A stretch of 64,000 nucleotides of DNA from assembly GCA_045863195.1 (NCBI GenBank), contig BTUI01000010.1, positions 15,851 to 79,850 of the forward strand, given 5' to 3'. Positions 30,443 to 36,617 of this stretch are shown here, in pieces. The notes under the pieces were generated by a model. The model ran no database searches. It saw nothing but the letters and a program-made list of their open reading frames with translations, and was not told the DNA's origin. Origin of the DNA: Chloroflexota bacterium. Lineage in GTDB: Bacteria > Chloroflexota > Dehalococcoidia > UBA2979. The translations under genes and the position numbers were made by a program. Each line of letters begins with the position of its first letter. The first letter of the stretch is position 1.

Positions 30443-32260
30443 CTATCGCCGCATGTGCATGTCGACGAAGTCGACGACGCGGCGGGCGAGGTCCAGACGG
30501 TGCGGCAGCCTGTGGAAGCCGTGCCCCTCCTCCGGGTAGACCACGTACTCCACCACACCCTCGGTCCGCCGCACCGTCTCCACGATCTGCTCGGACTCTT
30601 CCGGCGGTACGCGCACGTCATGGTCGCCCTGGAAGACCAGGAGTGGGGTGCGGATGAGGTGCGCCTTGTGGATCGGCGAGATCGTCCGCAGGAACTCCGG
30701 GTCCTCGCCGTACTCGCGCGAGCGGTGCTTGCGCCGCCACGGGCCGGTGAACCGCAGGAACGTCTCGAAGTTGGCGATGCCGTAGAGGTCGAACGCTGCC
30801 GCCCAGCGGTCGGGCGCCTCCGTGATCGCGGCGAGGACCATGAACCCGCCGTACGACCCGCCGAGGACACCGATCCGTTTCGGGTCGACCTCGCCGTTCC
30901 CGGCGAGCCAGTCGGCGGCGGCGATCAGGTCGCGCACGGAGTCCATGCGCTTCTCCACGTCATCCGCGTGGCTCCATTCCTTGCCGTAGCCGGAGGAGCC
31001 TCGGACGTTCGGGACCAGCAGCGCCACGTCGCCGCGGGCGAGGAGGTACTGCGGGCCGCTGTACCGCTCCCAGAGCGCCGGGCGGCTCTGCATCTCCGGG
31101 CCGCCGTGCACGAGCACCAGGCAGGGGAGCGTCCCGTCGCGAGGCGCGCCGTCCGGGACGTAGTAGAACGCCGGGATCTCGCGGCCATCGAAACTGCGGT
31201 AGCGGATCAGCCGCGGCTCCGGCAGCGAGTCGATCGGCAGCCCGCGCGTCTGGCTGGAGGTGAGCCGGCGCATCCGGCCCGTCTCCACGTCCGCGACCCA
31301 CACGTCCGGGACGTGGCGAGGGCCCTCGAACGTGAACGCGAACGACCGCCCGTCCGGGTGCCACGCGGGGGTGCTGGCGACACCCGCCGGCATCTCGTCG
31401 AGCGGCAGCCGCGCGCCGAGGCGTGCGTCGGCCGTGACCTCGTACGCCTCGAGCCGGCCGTAGCCGTCCTCGTTCACCACGAGGGCGAGGCGGCGTCCGT
31501 CTGGCGTCAGTGCCAGCGCCTCGATCTCCCACTCGCGCTCCAGCAGGTACTCGCGTTCGCCGGTCGCAAGGTCGATCCGCTGGAGCGCGAAGAACTCGCG
31601 TCCCTCGTTCGCCAGCACCAGCACGGCCCCGGCCGGGTGGATGTGCCCATACGTCCACTCGGAGAGGTCGTCGTGCGGCGTGAGCAGCCGGGGCTCCTCG
31701 ATGCCCTCGACATCGACGAGCCAGAGCGTGGCGTCTGCGGAGATCTCCAGGTTGGGGCGGGTGACCAGCAGGTGGTGGCCGTCCGGGGAGAACCGCCCGG
31801 CGGCGTTCATCCCGTCCTGCTCCAGAACCAGTCGCTCCTCGCCGGTGTCGACGTCGAGCACGTAGATGTCGAAGAACGCCGGGTTGCGGCGGTTCGATCC
31901 GTAGGAGACGGACCGCCCGTCCTCCGACCACGCGCCGAAGTTGTGGATCACCCGCGGCTGCGAGGCGAGGGCCCGGCTCGTGCCGGAGGCCAGGTTCAGG
32001 AGGTGCAACTGGTACTGCTCGTCGCCCCCGTCGTCCGCGATGTACAGCAGTTCGTCGCGGCTGGGGCGGAACGCGACCTGGTAGATGACGCCGCCGGTGT
32101 CGGTGAGCGCCCGCGCCTCGCCACCGGCCGAGGGGATGAGCCACGCCTGCGAGACCCCCGAGCGGTTCGACCGGAACGCCACGTTCGCGCCGGTGCGGTC
32201 GTAGGAGGGTTGCTCCGACACCTCGATGCTCACGAAGTCGTCCAGCGTGAAGTCCGGCAT
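30443..32260 (-). CDS. S9 prolyl oligopeptidase/acylaminoacyl peptidase
   Basis: Propeller repeats, HGGPE, NVRGSSGYG, GGSYGG, D.RVP, EGHGF. Confidence 0.92.
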   Translation of the reverse strand: MPDFTLDDFVSIEVSEQPSYDRTGANVAFRSNRSGVSQAWLIPSAGGEARALTDTGGVIYQVAFRPSRDELLYIADDGGDEQYQLHLLNLASGTSRALASQPRVIHNFGAWSEDGRSVSYGSNRRNPAFFDIYVLDVDTGEERLVLEQDGMNAAGRFSPDGHHLLVTRPNLEISADATLWLVDVEGIEEPRLLTPHDDLSEWTYGHIHPAGAVLVLANEGREFFALQRIDLATGEREYLLEREWEIEALALTPDGRRLALVVNEDGYGRLEAYEVTADARLGARLPLDEMPAGVASTPAWHPDGRSFAFTFEGPRHVPDVWVADVETGRMRRLTSSQTRGLPIDSLPEPRLIRYRSFDGREIPAFYYVPDGAPRDGTLPCLVLVHGGPEMQSRPALWERYSGPQYLLARGDVALLVPNVRGSSGYGKEWSHADDVEKRMDSVRDLIAAADWLAGNGEVDPKRIGVLGGSYGGFMVLAAITEAPDRWAAAFDLYGIANFETFLRFTGPWRRKHRSREYGEDPEFLRTISPIHKAHLIRTPLLVFQGDHDVRVPPEESEQIVETVRRTEGVVEYVVYPEEGHGFHRLPHRLDLARRVVDFVDMHMRR

Positions 32261-32351
32261 CGCACCGCCCCCTCGCCGTCGTGCGGGTGACGGCGAGGGA
32301 TAGTATGCGTGCGTATCGCAACCGTGATGCGTCACGCGAGGGGAGAGCGCC

Positions 32352-33518
32352 ATGCCCACCGCCTTCGAGCGCGCGCTGGAGCGCGCCGTCCCCGGGGTGA
32401 TCGAGGAGACCGTGCGCGTCACGGAGATCCCGGCGCCCACCTTCCAGGAGCGCACCCGCGCCCGCTACGTCCATGACCGCCTCGCCGGCATCGGCGGCTG
32501 GTCGTACCTGAGTATCGACTCCCACGCGAACGTCGTTGCCGTGCGGAAGGGCGAGCCCGGGCTGGCCCGCATCCTGCTGTGCGCGCACCTCGACACGGTG
32601 TTCCCGGACGCCGCCACGCCGGTGGTGCGCTCACGCGGCAAGCTGACCGGTCGCGGGGTCGGCGACAACAGCCTCGGGGTCGCCTCGATGCTCGGGGTCG
32701 CCGAGGTGATGCAGGCGACAGGCGTGAAGGGCGTCGGCGACATCATCTTCGCGGCGAACGTCGGCGAGGAGGGCCGAGGCGACCTGCGCGGCGCGCGGCG
32801 TCTGGTGAAGGAGTACGCGCGTGACTTCGATGCGATGATCGCGATCGAAGGCCATTCGTTGAACCGCATCCAGACGCAGGCGGTCGCCTCGCTGCGCTAC
32901 GAGGTCAGCGTGGAGACGGACGGCGGCCACTCCTGGGGCGCATACGGCCGCCCAAACGCGATCGCGCTGCTGGCGCGCGCGATCGTGGCCCTCGAGCCGC
33001 TCATGCCGGATCCGGCGGCCACGCCGAAGACCACGATGAACGTGGGCGTGATCCGGGGTGGCCGCAGCGTGAACACCATCGCGCCGGACGCGGTGTTCGA
33101 ACTGGACATCCGGTCGGTCGAACCGGCGAACGTCGACGCGCTGTTGAAGCGCGTCCGTGCGGCGATGAGGGCCGCCGTGGGCGCGGGCTTCGAGGTGAAG
33201 ATGAAGCGCATCGGCGCGCGCCCCGGCGGGACGATCCGTGAGGATGGGCCGCTGGTGCAGGCGATGCTCGGCGCGCGGAAAGGCCTCGGTCTGCCCGCGC
33301 CGGAGTTCTACGCCGGCTCCACGGATGCGAACGCCGCGCTCGGTGCGGGCTTCCCCACGACCTGTATCGGCGTGACGACGGGCGGCGAGGCGCACACGCC
33401 GCGCGAGTGGATCAGCACCGCACCGATCCGTCAGGGCGTCCCGTACCTCGGCCGTGCGATCGTCGCGGCGGCGCGCCTGCCGAGGTCCACGTTCCGCCGG
33501 TCAACGCGCCGGGCGTAG
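32352..33518 (+). CDS. M20 family metallopeptidase
   Basis: AHLDTVF, GDN, GEEG.GDL, GGHSW, STDAN, AHT. Confidence 0.88.
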   Translation: MPTAFERALERAVPGVIEETVRVTEIPAPTFQERTRARYVHDRLAGIGGWSYLSIDSHANVVAVRKGEPGLARILLCAHLDTVFPDAATPVVRSRGKLTGRGVGDNSLGVASMLGVAEVMQATGVKGVGDIIFAANVGEEGRGDLRGARRLVKEYARDFDAMIAIEGHSLNRIQTQAVASLRYEVSVETDGGHSWGAYGRPNAIALLARAIVALEPLMPDPAATPKTTMNVGVIRGGRSVNTIAPDAVFELDIRSVEPANVDALLKRVRAAMRAAVGAGFEVKMKRIGARPGGTIREDGPLVQAMLGARKGLGLPAPEFYAGSTDANAALGAGFPTTCIGVTTGGEAHTPREWISTAPIRQGVPYLGRAIVAAARLPRSTFRRSTRRA

Positions 33519-33591
33519 TCCCGCGTGAAGTCCCGGCGGGCTCGGGTCGTACGGGCTAGGGCGTAACGTTCGAGGCGCCCAGACTGGTGGC

Positions 33592-33963
33592 ATGGGCAGT
33601 ACCACCGTCCTCGGACGCCGCGCCGACCACCGCCTCGCGCTGGTGCTCGTCGTCGCGCTGCTTGCACCCTCCCTCGGGCCGGCCGCTGGCTATGACATGT
33701 GGGCGTGGTTCCCCGACCATGGCCACGCGGCCCTGGGCGCGGTGCCCGGCAACCACACCCACCCGTGGGACGCCGCTCCCGCCTCCGGTGCGGCCGCCGA
33801 GGTCGAGTTCACGGCGGGCAGCCTGCTCGGAGCATCGATCCTGCCGGTGTTGCTTGTGGCCGTGGCGCTCGCTCCGGCGATGGTGTCGCGTGTGCTCGCG
33901 GAGCGACGCCAGCAGGTGCCGATGGCAACGGTGCCTGATGTCGAGGGGCCACCCCCGCGCTGA
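33592..33963 (+). CDS. Small His-rich membrane protein ending PPPR; candidate regulatory leader of sco-pcuAC
   Basis: N-terminal hydrophobic helix, PDHGH..HTH, second hydrophobic stretch, C-terminal EGPPPR*. Ends 36 nt before sco. Confidence 0.7.
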   Translation: MGSTTVLGRRADHRLALVLVVALLAPSLGPAAGYDMWAWFPDHGHAALGAVPGNHTHPWDAAPASGAAAEVEFTAGSLLGASILPVLLVAVALAPAMVSRVLAERRQQVPMATVPDVEGPPPR

Positions 33964-33995
33964 CCTCCCCCGTCGATCACTGACGATCTGGGAGG
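33964..33995 (+). promoter_or_regulatory. Anti-SD/SD hairpin sequestering the sco ribosome-binding site
   Basis: CCTCCC (33964-33969) pairs with GGGAGG (33990-33995), inner CGTC/GACG. ATG at 34000. Confidence 0.65.
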
Positions 33996-33999
33996 CTCC

Positions 34000-34620
34000 A
34001 TGAATCACGTGAAGGCACGCCGGCGCGGATTCGCCGTCGGGCTGCTGGCCGCCATCGCCGCGGTCGCCCTCGTGGGGTGTCGCGAGGAGGCGCCGGACTT
34101 CGCCTCGGCGGTCGCGGATCCGCCCGCTGCCATGCCGGCGTTCGAACTGGTGGCGGAGGATGGCTCGCCGTTCCGGCTGGCCGACCTGCAGGGGCGGGTG
34201 GCGGTGGTGTACGTGGGGTACACCTTCTGCCCGGACATGTGCCCGCTCACCATGTCCCTCCTGGCGGAGGCGGTGGACCTGCTCCCCGCTGAGGTCAGGG
34301 ACGGGGTCCAGGTGGTGATGCTCACTGCCGACCCGGAACGGGACACCCCGGAGCGGACCGGGGAGTACGTGGCGTACTTTGACCCCGAGTTCCTCGGTGT
34401 GTCCGGTGACCCGGATGCCGTGCATGAGGCGCTCGCCTCGTGGGGCATCCACCCGGAGCATGGTCCGGTGTCCGCGAATGGCGGCTATGCCGTTTCGCAC
34501 CCCACGCGTACCTATGTGTTCAACCGGGAGGGGCTACTGCGGCTGTACGTACCGCACGACCTGCCGGCTCAAACGGTCGCCGACGATCTCGAACTCGTCT
34601 GGCGCGAAGGGAATGACTGA
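34000..34620 (+). CDS. SCO1/SenC copper chaperone lipoprotein
   Basis: Lipobox LVGC, GYTFCPDMCP (CxxxC), DPERDTP, YAVSH. Confidence 0.93.
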   Translation: MNHVKARRRGFAVGLLAAIAAVALVGCREEAPDFASAVADPPAAMPAFELVAEDGSPFRLADLQGRVAVVYVGYTFCPDMCPLTMSLLAEAVDLLPAEVRDGVQVVMLTADPERDTPERTGEYVAYFDPEFLGVSGDPDAVHEALASWGIHPEHGPVSANGGYAVSHPTRTYVFNREGLLRLYVPHDLPAQTVADDLELVWREGND

Positions 34621-35219
34621 TGTTCAACAACATGACCCGCACCGCTCGACACGCCCTGCTGTTCGGCGGGCTTGCGCTCGCCGGCCTCACGGCGGTGGCC
34701 TGCTCATCGGATGAGGACGCCGAGGCGACCCCTGTCGCGACCGCTGAGGTGACCGCCGCCGCCACGTCCGAGGCGACCGCCTCCCCGACCGAGGCGGCCC
34801 AGCCGGCGATCGAGGTCGCCGAGATCCGCGCCCGCGCCACGCCCGGGCTGGAGAACGAGAACAGCGCCGCGTACGCGAAGATCACCAACCGTGGCGCGGA
34901 GGCCGACCGCCTCGTCGGCGCCTCGGTGGACGCGTCAATCGCCGCGACGGTGGAACTGCACACCACCGTGAAGGAGGGCGACATGATGCGCATGCAGCAG
35001 GTGGACGGCTGGGACATCGCCCCCGGCGAGACGCTGGAACTGGCCCCGGGCGGTAACCACGTCATGATCCTCGGCCTGGTTGACCAGTTCGAGGTGGGCG
35101 AGCGCTTCACGCTGACGCTCATCTTCGAGCAGGCTGGTGAGATCCAGGTCGAGGTGCCGGTCATGGAGATCGCCACCTCCGGCATGGGCGGCATGGCGAC
35201 GCCGGGTGCGATGAACTAG
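34620..35219 (+). CDS. PCu(A)C copper chaperone lipoprotein
   Basis: Lipobox VAC, VELH..MMRM..LAPGGNHVM. Confidence 0.93.
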   Translation: MFNNMTRTARHALLFGGLALAGLTAVACSSDEDAEATPVATAEVTAAATSEATASPTEAAQPAIEVAEIRARATPGLENENSAAYAKITNRGAEADRLVGASVDASIAATVELHTTVKEGDMMRMQQVDGWDIAPGETLELAPGGNHVMILGLVDQFEVGERFTLTLIFEQAGEIQVEVPVMEIATSGMGGMATPGAMN

Positions 35220-35241
35220 CACCGGGTCGAGCGGATGCAAC

Positions 35242-35270
35242 GAGGGGCGGCCGCGAGGCCGCCCCTCTTC
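35242..35270 (+). terminator. Intrinsic terminator after pcuAC
   Basis: GAGGGGCGGCC-GCGA-GGCCGCCCCTC then TTCGTT. GNRA loop. Confidence 0.75.
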
Positions 35271-35292
35271 GTTCCACCGCGCTCGGAGGGTG

Positions 35293-36495
35293 CTACCAGG
35301 TGTGCTCCGCCTCGTACGGCGCATGTGCCAGCCGCAGCGCCGCGTCCCACCGCCCCAGGGCGGCGCGGTCGCGGACGCCCTCCAGCAGCCCCGCGCGGTG
35401 CGCCTCGGACGCGGAGTACCGCCCGAAGACGAGCGATGCGAGCGTGTCCGGCGTGAGCGCGAAGTCCACGTCCGCGCCGTCCGCCCGTGAGACCGCGCCG
35501 CCCTCGGCGGAGGTCGCCACGCTCCAGCGCCCCGCGTTCCACTCGCAGAACGGGTCGCGCAGGTCGAAGCGGAGTGCCGTCTCGGCGGCATACGGTCGCG
35601 CTGCGAGGGCATCCTCGACGGTCACGAGGCGGGCCATGATCCCGTCGCGGAGCGAGGCGTTCAGGAGCCGGGGCTCCACCAGCATGAGCGGAAGCGGGTC
35701 ATCGCTCGGCGCGTTGTCCCAGACGATCTGCTCCACGTTGTCGTAGCCGCCGAGGACGCCCCAGAGCGCCTGCGTCGCCTGCGGCGTCAGGGCGAAGTGG
35801 TCCATCACCCGCAGCACGTGCGGGCCGGCGCCACCGGCACGGCCGTGGACGTAGACGACATAACCCTGAGGTTCGCCGTCCTCCTCGTACGCCAGGATCA
35901 CCTGTCGCTGGCCAGCGGGCGGATCCTGCAGCGGGCCCGCGTCCCACATCGGGCGGCCGCGGTGGATCGTGGCCGTCCGGTCCTCGCGGAACCGCCGGTA
36001 GACGTCCACGAGCAGCCCGAACTCGGTCGCCACGTCCACCTCGCGCACCCGACCGTGCTGCGGCAGGGGATGGTGGAACTGGATGTGACGAGGCTCCACG
36101 CGGAAGGTCTGCCGGACGTTCACGGTGCCGTAGCCGTACCGCTGGTAGATCGCCATCCACGCCGGGTGCAGGCCGGCAATCGCCACCTCGCGGCGCTCGT
36201 GCATCTCCTCGAAGTGCTTGCGGGTGACCGCCCGCAGGTAGCCCCGGCGGCGGTGGGCCGGGTGCGTGGACACCTGTGTCACGCCGGCCATCGGCACCGC
36301 GCGGCCGTTGAGGCGCACCTGGAGCGGCCAGAAGGCGTAGGTCGTGGCGATCTCCCCATCGACGAACGCGCACATCGTCCACTCTGGGGCCATGCCGCTG
36401 AACATCGCCTCGGGCAGGGCAAGTTGCCTCGACCCCTGCCGCGCCAGCGCCGGCATCTCTTCAGCGCGGGCTGGGCGGATCTCTACGTGGGGCAC
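35293..36495 (-). CDS. Eis-like GNAT acetyltransferase with SCP2 C-domain
   Basis: VSTHPAHRRRG, IYQRYGYG, DPFCEWNAGRW, LASLVFG. Confidence 0.88.
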   Translation of the reverse strand: MPHVEIRPARAEEMPALARQGSRQLALPEAMFSGMAPEWTMCAFVDGEIATTYAFWPLQVRLNGRAVPMAGVTQVSTHPAHRRRGYLRAVTRKHFEEMHERREVAIAGLHPAWMAIYQRYGYGTVNVRQTFRVEPRHIQFHHPLPQHGRVREVDVATEFGLLVDVYRRFREDRTATIHRGRPMWDAGPLQDPPAGQRQVILAYEEDGEPQGYVVYVHGRAGGAGPHVLRVMDHFALTPQATQALWGVLGGYDNVEQIVWDNAPSDDPLPLMLVEPRLLNASLRDGIMARLVTVEDALAARPYAAETALRFDLRDPFCEWNAGRWSVATSAEGGAVSRADGADVDFALTPDTLASLVFGRYSASEAHRAGLLEGVRDRAALGRWDAALRLAHAPYEAEHTW

Positions 36496-36617
36496 GCTGG
36501 TTCCTCCATCGTCACGGGGCACAGATGGGCGGGAAGTGTATCCGCGTGGGGCTGGCGTCCGCCCGCGCGGGGGCGCGACCCCGGGCGCGGACTTGAACAT
36601 CTCTGACGGAGGGTGCT

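Follow-up and report, generated by a model that had tools for sequence, protein, structure and literature searches.

A Cys-free, His-motif leader gene upstream of sco and pcuAC in a Chloroflexota bacterium as a candidate CutF-type sensor

In the genome of a Chloroflexota bacterium (Dehalococcoidia, UBA2979; assembly GCA_045863195.1), a small open reading frame (ORF) with a histidine motif and a C-terminal PPPR sequence precedes the genes of two copper chaperones, sco and pcuAC. Does this ORF encode a leader peptide whose translation controls the chaperone genes, or a small protein with a function of its own? We addressed this question for a stretch of 64,000 nucleotides (contig BTUI01000010.1, positions 15,851 to 79,850 of the forward strand), which is called the window in the following and whose numbering is used throughout. 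The original prediction, made from the sequence of the window, held that a ribosome pausing at the end of the ORF opens a hairpin and thereby frees sco's Shine-Dalgarno (SD) sequence, and it proposed to follow the His motif, the PPPR tail, and the hairpin through related loci. At the sequence level, these comparisons support the stalling-switch reading. We consider it probable that the 123-amino-acid (aa) gene is a CutF-type sensor-leader. Since this kind of switch is already known from CutF, the leader would represent a new Cys-free variant in an unannotated family.

The leader is a gene of a conserved, unannotated family

The leader gene (positions 33592 to 33963, plus strand) encodes 123 aa and extends from ATG 33592 to a TGA stop codon at 33961 to 33963. 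Inspection by eye revealed no in-frame ATG, GTG, or TTG upstream of 33592 within the open frame. The GC fractions at the three codon positions were of the coding type (0.80/0.57/0.84) and resembled those of sco (0.76/0.46/0.85). Every feature that had been described for the ORF was present in the sequence. A basic n-region (RR..R) is followed by a hydrophobic segment, L15 to L28 (33634 to 33675), with a peak 17-residue Kyte-Doolittle mean of 2.25, which constitutes a putative signal peptide or signal anchor. The putative metal site, W39-x3-H43-G-H45-x9-H55-x-H57-P-W-D60 (33706 to 33771), spans the sequence PDHGH at residues 41 to 45 and, after nine residues, HTH at residues 55 to 57. A V-E-F-T motif (residues 71 to 74; 33802 to 33813) marks the start of a stretch of fixed length, termed the ruler here, and a second hydrophobic stretch (residues ~78 to 98; 33823 to 33885; Kyte-Doolittle value of 2.61) is not conserved family-wide. 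The protein ends in ...VEGPPPR directly before the stop codon. The PPPR codons CCA CCC CCG CGC (33949 to 33960) and the adjacent TGA form the proposed arrest site (33949 to 33963). All of these elements are located on the plus strand. An antisense open frame of 314 aa (33556 to 34500, minus strand), which covers the leader and sco, was rejected as a gene; its GC pattern (0.84/0.53/0.78) is that of a shadow frame. DNA nearly identical to that of the locus is present in sludge and bioreactor metagenomes.

The window protein had no match in Pfam at an E value of ≤0.1, and 10 family members had no meaningful match in NCBIfam. A word-indexed search of a set of 5.8 billion proteins (E ≤ 0.01) recovered three proteins including that of the window, all of which were 123 aa long and ended in PPPR. 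An exhaustive profile search of 1.84 billion representatives returned 263 clusters at E ≤ 1e-3, 122 of them at E ≤ 1e-10, and the listed relatives were mostly 109 to 191 aa in length. For further analysis, the window protein was aligned with 142 of 151 other sequences (P0002 to P0152; alignment A3; 143 sequences). These comprised the 150 best listed matches of the profile search and P0003 from the word-indexed search; nine were dropped as fragments, fusions, or tail-less sequences (P0095, P0096, P0106, P0111, P0123, P0126, P0142, P0145, and P0150).

At the level of genomes, six-frame searches detected the leader in 18 of 61 relatives, all of which belonged to the window's own taxonomic family, and yielded no match in the 24 genomes that represented other families of the class. 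A profile of 20 sequences (A2) identified the leader in 48 of 99 genomes of the taxonomic family, distributed over 13 of 21 genera and with up to five copies per genome. When 401 genomes were sampled evenly across the phylum, the window's own genome was the sole match, and a search of genome contigs with the single leader protein and with alignment A1 returned no relative. The window's genome carries a second copy outside the window (L025; G000:C6:42084-42551, minus strand), in which the motifs read W-x-PGHQH...HAHPWD...VVFTFD...PPPPRA-stop. The gene of a second Sco-like lipoprotein follows 147 nt downstream of this copy and has a weak SD sequence (-3.2 kcal/mol).

The relation to DUF2946 (PF11162), the Pfam family of the Bordetella leader CruR, was checked separately. 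Only 4 of the 143 relatives matched the model at E ≤ 1 (best value, 0.034), and no match over the cut-off was found among 41 relatives. A sub-threshold hit at one locus (L021) was rejected; it originated from an Arg/Ser-rich ORF in the wrong frame. In the sample of 401 genomes of the phylum, PF11162 was marginal in two, and most hits contained internal stops. A language-model look-up listed a DUF2946 cluster at 0.92 as a distant named neighbor, which serves as a lead only. The window protein, being Cys-free, also lacks the central CxxC motif of the DUF2946 type. By Pfam's own model, the leader family is not DUF2946. These data establish the window leader as a real gene of a conserved family without annotation.

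The residues of the putative metal site were strongly conserved. H43, H45, H55, and H57 were invariant across the 143 aligned sequences, and W39, P58, W59, and D60 were conserved to at least 90% in the 20 sequences of A2. The absence of Cys claimed for the leader was borne out and is shared by 89 of the 143 relatives. A hydrophobic N-terminal segment (Kyte-Doolittle ≥1.6) was present in 136 of them. Conservation extended to the C-terminal end, where P122 was invariant and P121 was conserved to at least 90% (A3). Among 142 scorable metagenomic relatives, the tail R/Q/K was followed by one residue in 105 and by none in 14 (at most one in 119/142). A tail of the form PP[P][RQK] plus zero to six residues was kept in 65 of 69 distinct genomic copies; one residue followed R/Q/K in 46 of these, none in 10, and two to six in 9. 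For comparison, only 2 of 1,706 crudely called genes of the window's genome ended in PPP[RKQ] plus zero to six residues. The His motif and the PPPR tail are thus both conserved in the relatives, as the original prediction had envisaged.

The stretch between the two motifs showed a different kind of conservation. The column of F73 contained F in 119/143 sequences and that of T74 contained T in 93/143. The distance from F73 to P122 was 47 to 56 residues in 143/143 sequences (median, 51), whereas the distance from H57 to F73 was variable (16 to 52; 5th to 95th percentile). The sequence from F73 to PPP itself was poorly conserved; it resembled a transmembrane segment (Kyte-Doolittle ≥1.6) in 55/143 relatives and clearly did not (<1.0) in 28/143. 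The kept feature of this stretch is its length. Codon usage at the tail was also unusual. Among 60 genomic copies, 52% had one of the rare codons CCT (27%) and CCA (25%) for the first Pro of the motif, compared with 8.6% of 36,068 Pro codons genome-wide (CCT, 4.0%; CCA, 4.6%) and 13% of the other 845 prolines in the same leader ORFs (CCT, 6%; CCA, 7%).

Pairing of the leader tail region with the downstream SD sequence

The anti-SD sequence CCTCCC (33964 to 33969) follows the leader stop codon directly, and its pairing with the SD sequence GGGAGG of sco (33990 to 33995; 4 nt before ATG 34000) was confirmed by folding positions 33930 to 34010. The two arms, both on the plus strand, paired in the minimum free energy structure as well as in the centroid structure, of which this hairpin was the sole element. 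An inner stem of GTCG (33972 to 33975) and CGAT (33984 to 33987) encloses an 8-nt loop. The spacer between leader and sco measures 36 nt, nearly all of which is taken up by the SD-sequestering hairpin. The sequestered SD sequence has a duplex energy of -10.2 kcal/mol with the 16S tail; the 16S 3' end of the window's genome has the canonical CCUCC. Its pairing probability with the tail window was 1.00, and a value of ≥0.99 was reached in only 1 of 69 similarly spaced control gene pairs of the same genome. The anti-SD is positioned 4 to 9 nt 3' of the Arg codon, where the footprint of a ribosome halted at PPPR/stop would cover it. The DNA of the hairpin region has a GC content of 71%. An Rfam scan of positions 33000 to 35500 gave no match at E ≤ 1, and neither a promoter nor a terminator, including an intrinsic one, was found in a scan of positions 33300 to 35500.

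We then compared SD occlusion across the family. For 54 distinct loci in which 25 to 135 nt separate the R/Q/K codon from the following start, the region from the PPPR codons through the start codon was folded. Controls were 282 same-strand gene pairs of the same spacing range, taken from the window's genome only; gene calling for these controls was crude and relied on composition only, and the same SD rule as for the family served to pick the starts. Pairing probabilities were used as the measure, since the raw duplex energy failed to separate the family from the controls. The median probability that the SD sequence pairs with the region from the PPPR codons to +20 nt was 0.75 for the family and 0.15 for the controls (Mann-Whitney p = 3.4e-13), and the difference held in all three spacing classes. 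An occlusion of ≥0.5 was observed for 42/54 family loci versus 80/282 controls, and one of ≥0.9 for 14/54 versus 10/282. Mean SD pairing on the PPPR codons, on positions +0 to +9, and on positions +10 to +19 amounted to 0.27, 0.20, and 0.11 in the family and to 0.06, 0.05, and 0.05 in the controls.

The pairing partner was located close to the tail codons. In 42 of the 49 loci (out of 54) with a paired SD sequence, the center of the partner was found within -12 to +20 of the end of the R codon (median, +8.4). Four copies carry six extra codons; in these, the partner lies within the ORF just after PPP[KR], 11 to 18 nt before the end of the stop codon. Since it stays next to PPP[KR] in these extended copies, the structure is anchored to PPPR and not to the stop codon. 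In many copies (e.g., L058, L069, L075, and L079), the anti-SD lies in the proline codons themselves (CCU CCN CCN), and a long-range stem then encloses the whole spacer of up to ~120 nt. The R codon was never closer than 39 nt to the next start (65 copies), which would leave room for a paused 70S and an initiating 30S ribosome.

The two arms also matched each other within loci. Cognate pairs of tail and SD-region arms had a duplex energy of -14.67 kcal/mol, compared with -12.79 kcal/mol for swapped pairs (p = 5e-5; 20,000 permutations). The cognate advantage was -1.85 kcal/mol after removal of row and column means (p = 5e-5), and the effect was not correlated with GC content (rho = 0.08). The covariation expected from the original prediction was thus observed, along with the elevated occlusion. 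RNAalifold likewise recovered the anti-SD:SD helix from eight tail-to-start regions, with double-sided changes in 7 of 8 pairs; little weight was given to this result, since the MAFFT alignment was out of register, many cells were broken, and the energy was only -1.54 kcal/mol.

A further arrangement was seen in two Sco-type copies (L007/L054 and L009/L032). A strong GC hairpin of 7 to 8 bp with a 4-nt loop directly follows the stop codon and overlaps a second possible hairpin, and the sco start is located 54 to 71 nt further downstream. The overlapping hairpins look like alternative structures. SD occlusion in these two copies was 0.78 and 0.20, i.e., only partial in one of them.

Genes encoded downstream of the leaders

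In the window, the leader is followed by sco (34000 to 34620, plus strand), which encodes an SCO1/SenC copper chaperone with a CPDMC motif (PF02630; E = 2.8e-35), and by pcuAC (34620 to 35219, plus strand) for a PCu(A)C copper chaperone (PF04314; E = 1.5e-33), whose start overlaps the sco stop. A same-strand downstream ORF was found for 67 of 69 family copies. According to Pfam, it encoded Sco in 21 and PCuAC in 1 of the 67; a family of ~290 aa accounted for 9, with a CopC domain detected in one member (L077; E = 9.5e-13). The commonest neighbor was an unnamed secreted family of ~210 aa (26 of 67). Another unnamed family followed three leaders, and PepSY_TM proteins followed two (L081 in G458 and L084 in G013; 502 aa; PF03929; E = 2e-59). 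The remaining genes were that of a small c-type cytochrome (one; L066 in G013; PF13442) and four singletons.

Members of the ~210-aa family (L030:1927-2547 and 25 further loci, 25 of these 26 being aligned in A4) carry a signal peptide and, once mature, begin with A-H-[EG]-R. They contain an Ig-like beta-sandwich as well as a membrane helix at the C terminus, whose end is basic. The family had no match in Pfam or NCBIfam. AlphaFold2 produced a model with a predicted local distance difference test (pLDDT) score of 80.9. Foldseek returned only weak matches (E of ~1e-3 to 3e-2), which included the copper-binding proteins FetP/P19 and, in addition, CrdA and DUF4426. The family may represent an undescribed extracytoplasmic copper protein.

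The other genes around the locus, an S9 prolyl-oligopeptidase-type hydrolase (30443 to 32455, minus strand), an M20 peptidase that ends 73 nt before the leader (32352 to 33518, plus strand), and an Eis-like GNAT acetyltransferase with an SCP2 domain (35293 to 36600, minus strand), showed no evident link to copper. Metatranscriptome contigs from four RNA runs of two studies contained short perfect pieces at 33690 to 33850 (within the leader), 33332 to 33574 (across the end of the upstream gene), and 34548 to 34683 (across the sco/pcuAC junction), none of which bridged the leader-sco junction. Due to possible DNA carry-over, these pieces are uninformative on transcription or operon structure.

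Proposed switch, alternative explanations, and known systems

The gene and its motifs, the fixed spacer, the SD-sequestering structure with its position relative to PPPR, and the copper-related neighbors emerge from the analysis; export, stalling, metal binding, and their coupling are steps that we infer. In the proposed mechanism, the leader would be exported co-translationally via its N-terminal signal or anchor, and the four-His motif (W-x3-HGH-x9-HxHPWD) would be outside the membrane while the ribosome finishes the C terminus. The ribosome would pause on the polyproline of the terminal PPPR, adjacent to the stop codon, and in this position it would cover or unwind the CCTCCC anti-SD and free the GGGAGG SD sequence. 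During the pause, sco, and with it the overlapping pcuAC, would be initiated; after the ribosome left, the hairpin would re-form and hide the SD sequence again. The length of the pause would be set by the metal occupancy, most likely with copper, of the exported His site. The signal would be carried along the fixed chain of ~50 residues from the F-T motif to PPP, which would span the ribosomal tunnel and the Sec channel, with the His/FT module just emerging as PPPR is decoded.

The direction of the response is the least supported step of this proposal. In a protein without Cys, it is more plausible that a bound metal favors folding, and with it a pull on the chain, than that it hinders them; hence, our guess is that the His hairpin folds upon binding of copper, that the resulting pull cuts the pause short, and that production of the chaperones takes place mainly under copper scarcity. 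A force-based version of the sensor is possible but less likely than not. Here, copper or another metal would clamp the four His in the HGH/VxFT hairpin at the outer face of the Sec channel just as the ribosome arrives at PPPR, at a distance of a ~50-residue ruler from the peptidyl-transferase center, and release the pause; the anti-SD, often contained in the PPP codons by way of rare CCU codons, would then reclose, and Sco, PCuAC, and further proteins of copper acquisition would be produced only at scarce extracytoplasmic copper. If true, nascent chains would have a second, chemically different way of sensing metals across the membrane, one that dispenses with disulfides and has the sign opposite to that of CutF. 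A sensor-leader role would assign a function to ~260 clusters of proteins now called "hypothetical," point to a likely regulator of the copper supply by Sco/PCuAC to cytochrome oxidase in uncultured sludge bacteria, and mark the unnamed secreted family as probably copper related.

Several observations weigh against the switch. The fold energy of 33930 to 34010 was ordinary (z = 0.19; 109 of 200 shuffled sequences were at least as good), and a 141-nt fold was no better than shuffles (z = -0.54). With a folding energy that is not unusual, the case for a switch cannot rest on energy alone. Across the family, the raw duplex energy of tail and SD region equaled that of the controls (median, -14.5 versus -14.55 kcal/mol; p = 0.9), and at long spacings the controls were if anything more stable (-16.8 versus -14.25 kcal/mol; p = 0.051). 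Pairing of the SD sequence with the tail stayed below 0.5 in 12/54 loci, and a subgroup preceding the 290-aa family (L040, L043, L044, and L047) paired only at ~0.01. PPP codons are inherently complementary to SD sequences, so part of the occlusion signal stems from the coding of PPP; moreover, the 54 loci are kin, and the p values overstate their independence. The window's genome encodes EF-P, which normally relieves pauses at PPP, although EF-P and the canonical 16S anti-SD also count on the side of the switch as available machinery. Finally, the four-His site could also accommodate Ni, Zn, or Co in place of Cu.

The strongest competing explanation is a stable small copper-binding protein of the membrane or the secreted fraction that acts as a partner of, or metal donor to, Sco/PCuAC; PPPR would then be a structural or interaction motif, and the hairpin would provide plain translational coupling that holds leader and chaperone at a constant ratio, without sensing. 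AlphaFold2 (143 sequences) predicted the leader protein with a mean pLDDT of 82.2 as two helices, one of them at residues 9 to 32, and a beta-hairpin in which strand 71 to 74 (VxFT) pairs with strand 44 to 47 (HGH). This confident model would equally fit a stable membrane protein. The second segment is transmembrane-like in the window's subfamily, the four invariant His could form a metal site, and CutF itself was at first read as a Cu-binding component whose Pro-rich end was suggested to mediate interactions (Ozturk et al. 2021, PMC8456105). However, the stretch from F73 to PPP keeps its length but neither its sequence nor its hydrophobicity, the tail stands at the very end (zero to one residue after it in 119/142), and the motif begins with a Pro for which rare codons are overrepresented. 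The anti-SD follows the PPPR codons even in copies with six extra ORF codons, the tail matches the one in CutF, a leader with reported stalling, and Foldseek detected no structural relative of the model in the PDB (best E = 1.8). We therefore regard a stable protein as unlikely.

Less likely still is a sensor-leader with a mainly transcriptional output, as in CruR, in which the paused ribosome would block Rho, a terminator, or an attenuator in the spacer and unmasking of the SD sequence would be secondary. Rho-dependent termination has been reported for CruR, spacers (R codon to next start) reach 400 nt in some relatives, strong post-stop hairpins that do not involve the SD sequence occur (e.g., in L007 and L009), and 12/54 loci show little sequestration by the tail. 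In the window, however, the 36-nt spacer consists almost entirely of the SD-sequestering hairpin and the scanned region lacks an intrinsic terminator, and the tail window occludes the SD sequence in 42/54 loci. A chance origin, i.e., a spurious ORF in GC-rich DNA next to a fortuitous CCTCCC/GGGAGG match, is hardly credible: GC-rich genomes yield many long open frames, such as the overlapping antisense ORF of 314 aa, and the fold z-scores are not significant, but it is already contradicted by the coding-type codon-position GC, the invariant motifs of a family of 263 related clusters, the synteny with copper genes, which is conserved, and the SD occlusion, which is enriched over controls. This leaves the CutF-type sensor-leader as the reading that we prefer.

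Ozturk et al. (2023) collected 5,334 "CutF-like" proteins by rules that ask for a length of <150 aa, a PP within the final 15 residues, an N-terminal signal peptide, and a gene that follows downstream (PMC9973294). The leader fits them in its length (123 aa), its tail (PPPR as the last four residues), and its downstream gene (sco starts 36 nt after its stop codon), and it has a putative signal. The family may already be counted in that set. The original prediction of a distinct family outside Proteobacteria held with respect to DUF2946, from which the family is separate by the Pfam model. The implied novelty was too strong, since CutF-like proteins outside Proteobacteria, with Chloroflexota described as "scarce," and His-only clusters are reported in that study. 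The His-only clusters 14 and 17 precede HupE/UreJ and were linked to nickel and cobalt, and PCuAC was named among the commonest downstream neighbors (PMC9973294). Unlike these clusters, the leader family precedes Sco, PCuAC, and CopC-type genes. Sco/SenC and PCuAC/PccA near CutF-like genes have also been reported by Roy et al. 2022 (PMC9426467) and Ozturk et al. 2021 (PMC8456105). Among the papers on CutF-like proteins that a full-text search listed, none dealt with a His/PPPR family before sco.

The general principle resembles that of SecM, MifM, and VemP. These are nascent chains that are exported and carry an arrest sequence at the C terminus; the arrest responds to force that pulls on the chain, and the pause opens a stem that hides the SD sequence of the next gene. 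They reportedly monitor the export machinery and precede secA, yidC2, and secDF, whereas a ligand would be monitored in our proposal; the arrest sequences and the downstream genes differ as well. In common with this type of leader, the window leader has a C-terminal arrest-type sequence, PPPR, which matches the PPPRL of CutF in sequence, and a predicted SD stem whose 5' arm a paused ribosome would reach.

CruR (Bp2923) of Bordetella pertussis, a DUF2946 protein, shares its basic design with the window leader: a short ORF that combines a metal motif with a Pro-rich end lies upstream of a copper gene, and control of that gene by CruR is post-transcriptional. Its homologs were reported in operons with ScoC, PcuAC, YcnI, and CopC (Roy et al. 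2022, PMC9426467). According to the reports, the stall of CruR is relieved by copper, and CruR needs neither its signal peptide nor EF-P to work; a pause at the window leader that became shorter with copper would follow a like logic. CruR is Cys based and reportedly uses Rho-dependent termination within a 162-nt spacer, whereas the window leader is Cys-free and is followed by a 36-nt spacer with an SD hairpin.

The closest counterpart is CutF of Rhodobacter capsulatus (cutFOG), described as a protein of 118 aa with a Sec signal peptide, the motif C69xxHC73, and the C-terminal end P109EPEGPPPRL118 (PMC8456105, PMC9973294, bioRxiv 10.1101/2025.02.05.636593). Deletion of its tail or exchange of PPP for PAP was reported to abolish copper-dependent CutO production; the SD sequence of cutO is reportedly hidden by a cutF-cutO stem-loop, and ribosome stalling has been reported. 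The window leader (123 aa) is of similar size and has the same order of elements: a hydrophobic segment, putatively of the Sec type, at the N terminus, a metal motif in the center, and EGPPPR(L) just before the stop codon. In both cases, a short spacer contains a stem-loop that hides the SD sequence of the next gene, exported copper proteins are encoded next, and several paralogs per genome occur in differing copper neighborhoods. In contrast to CutF, the candidate ligands here are four His and no Cys; thus, the disulfide-versus-copper model proposed for CutF cannot apply. The genes that follow encode Sco/PCuAC instead of a multicopper oxidase, similarity to DUF2946 is not detectable by Pfam in the window leader, and the PPP codons themselves form the anti-SD arm in many of its relatives. 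Transmembrane metal sensing by nascent peptides has been worked out only for CutF and CruR, which are both proteobacterial and Cys based and disagree in sign and output. The leader family would be their Cys-free counterpart and offers clean signatures, i.e., four invariant His, a fixed spacer, a CutF-like PPPR tail, and an anti-SD anchored to PPPR, each of which can be directly converted into a mutant.

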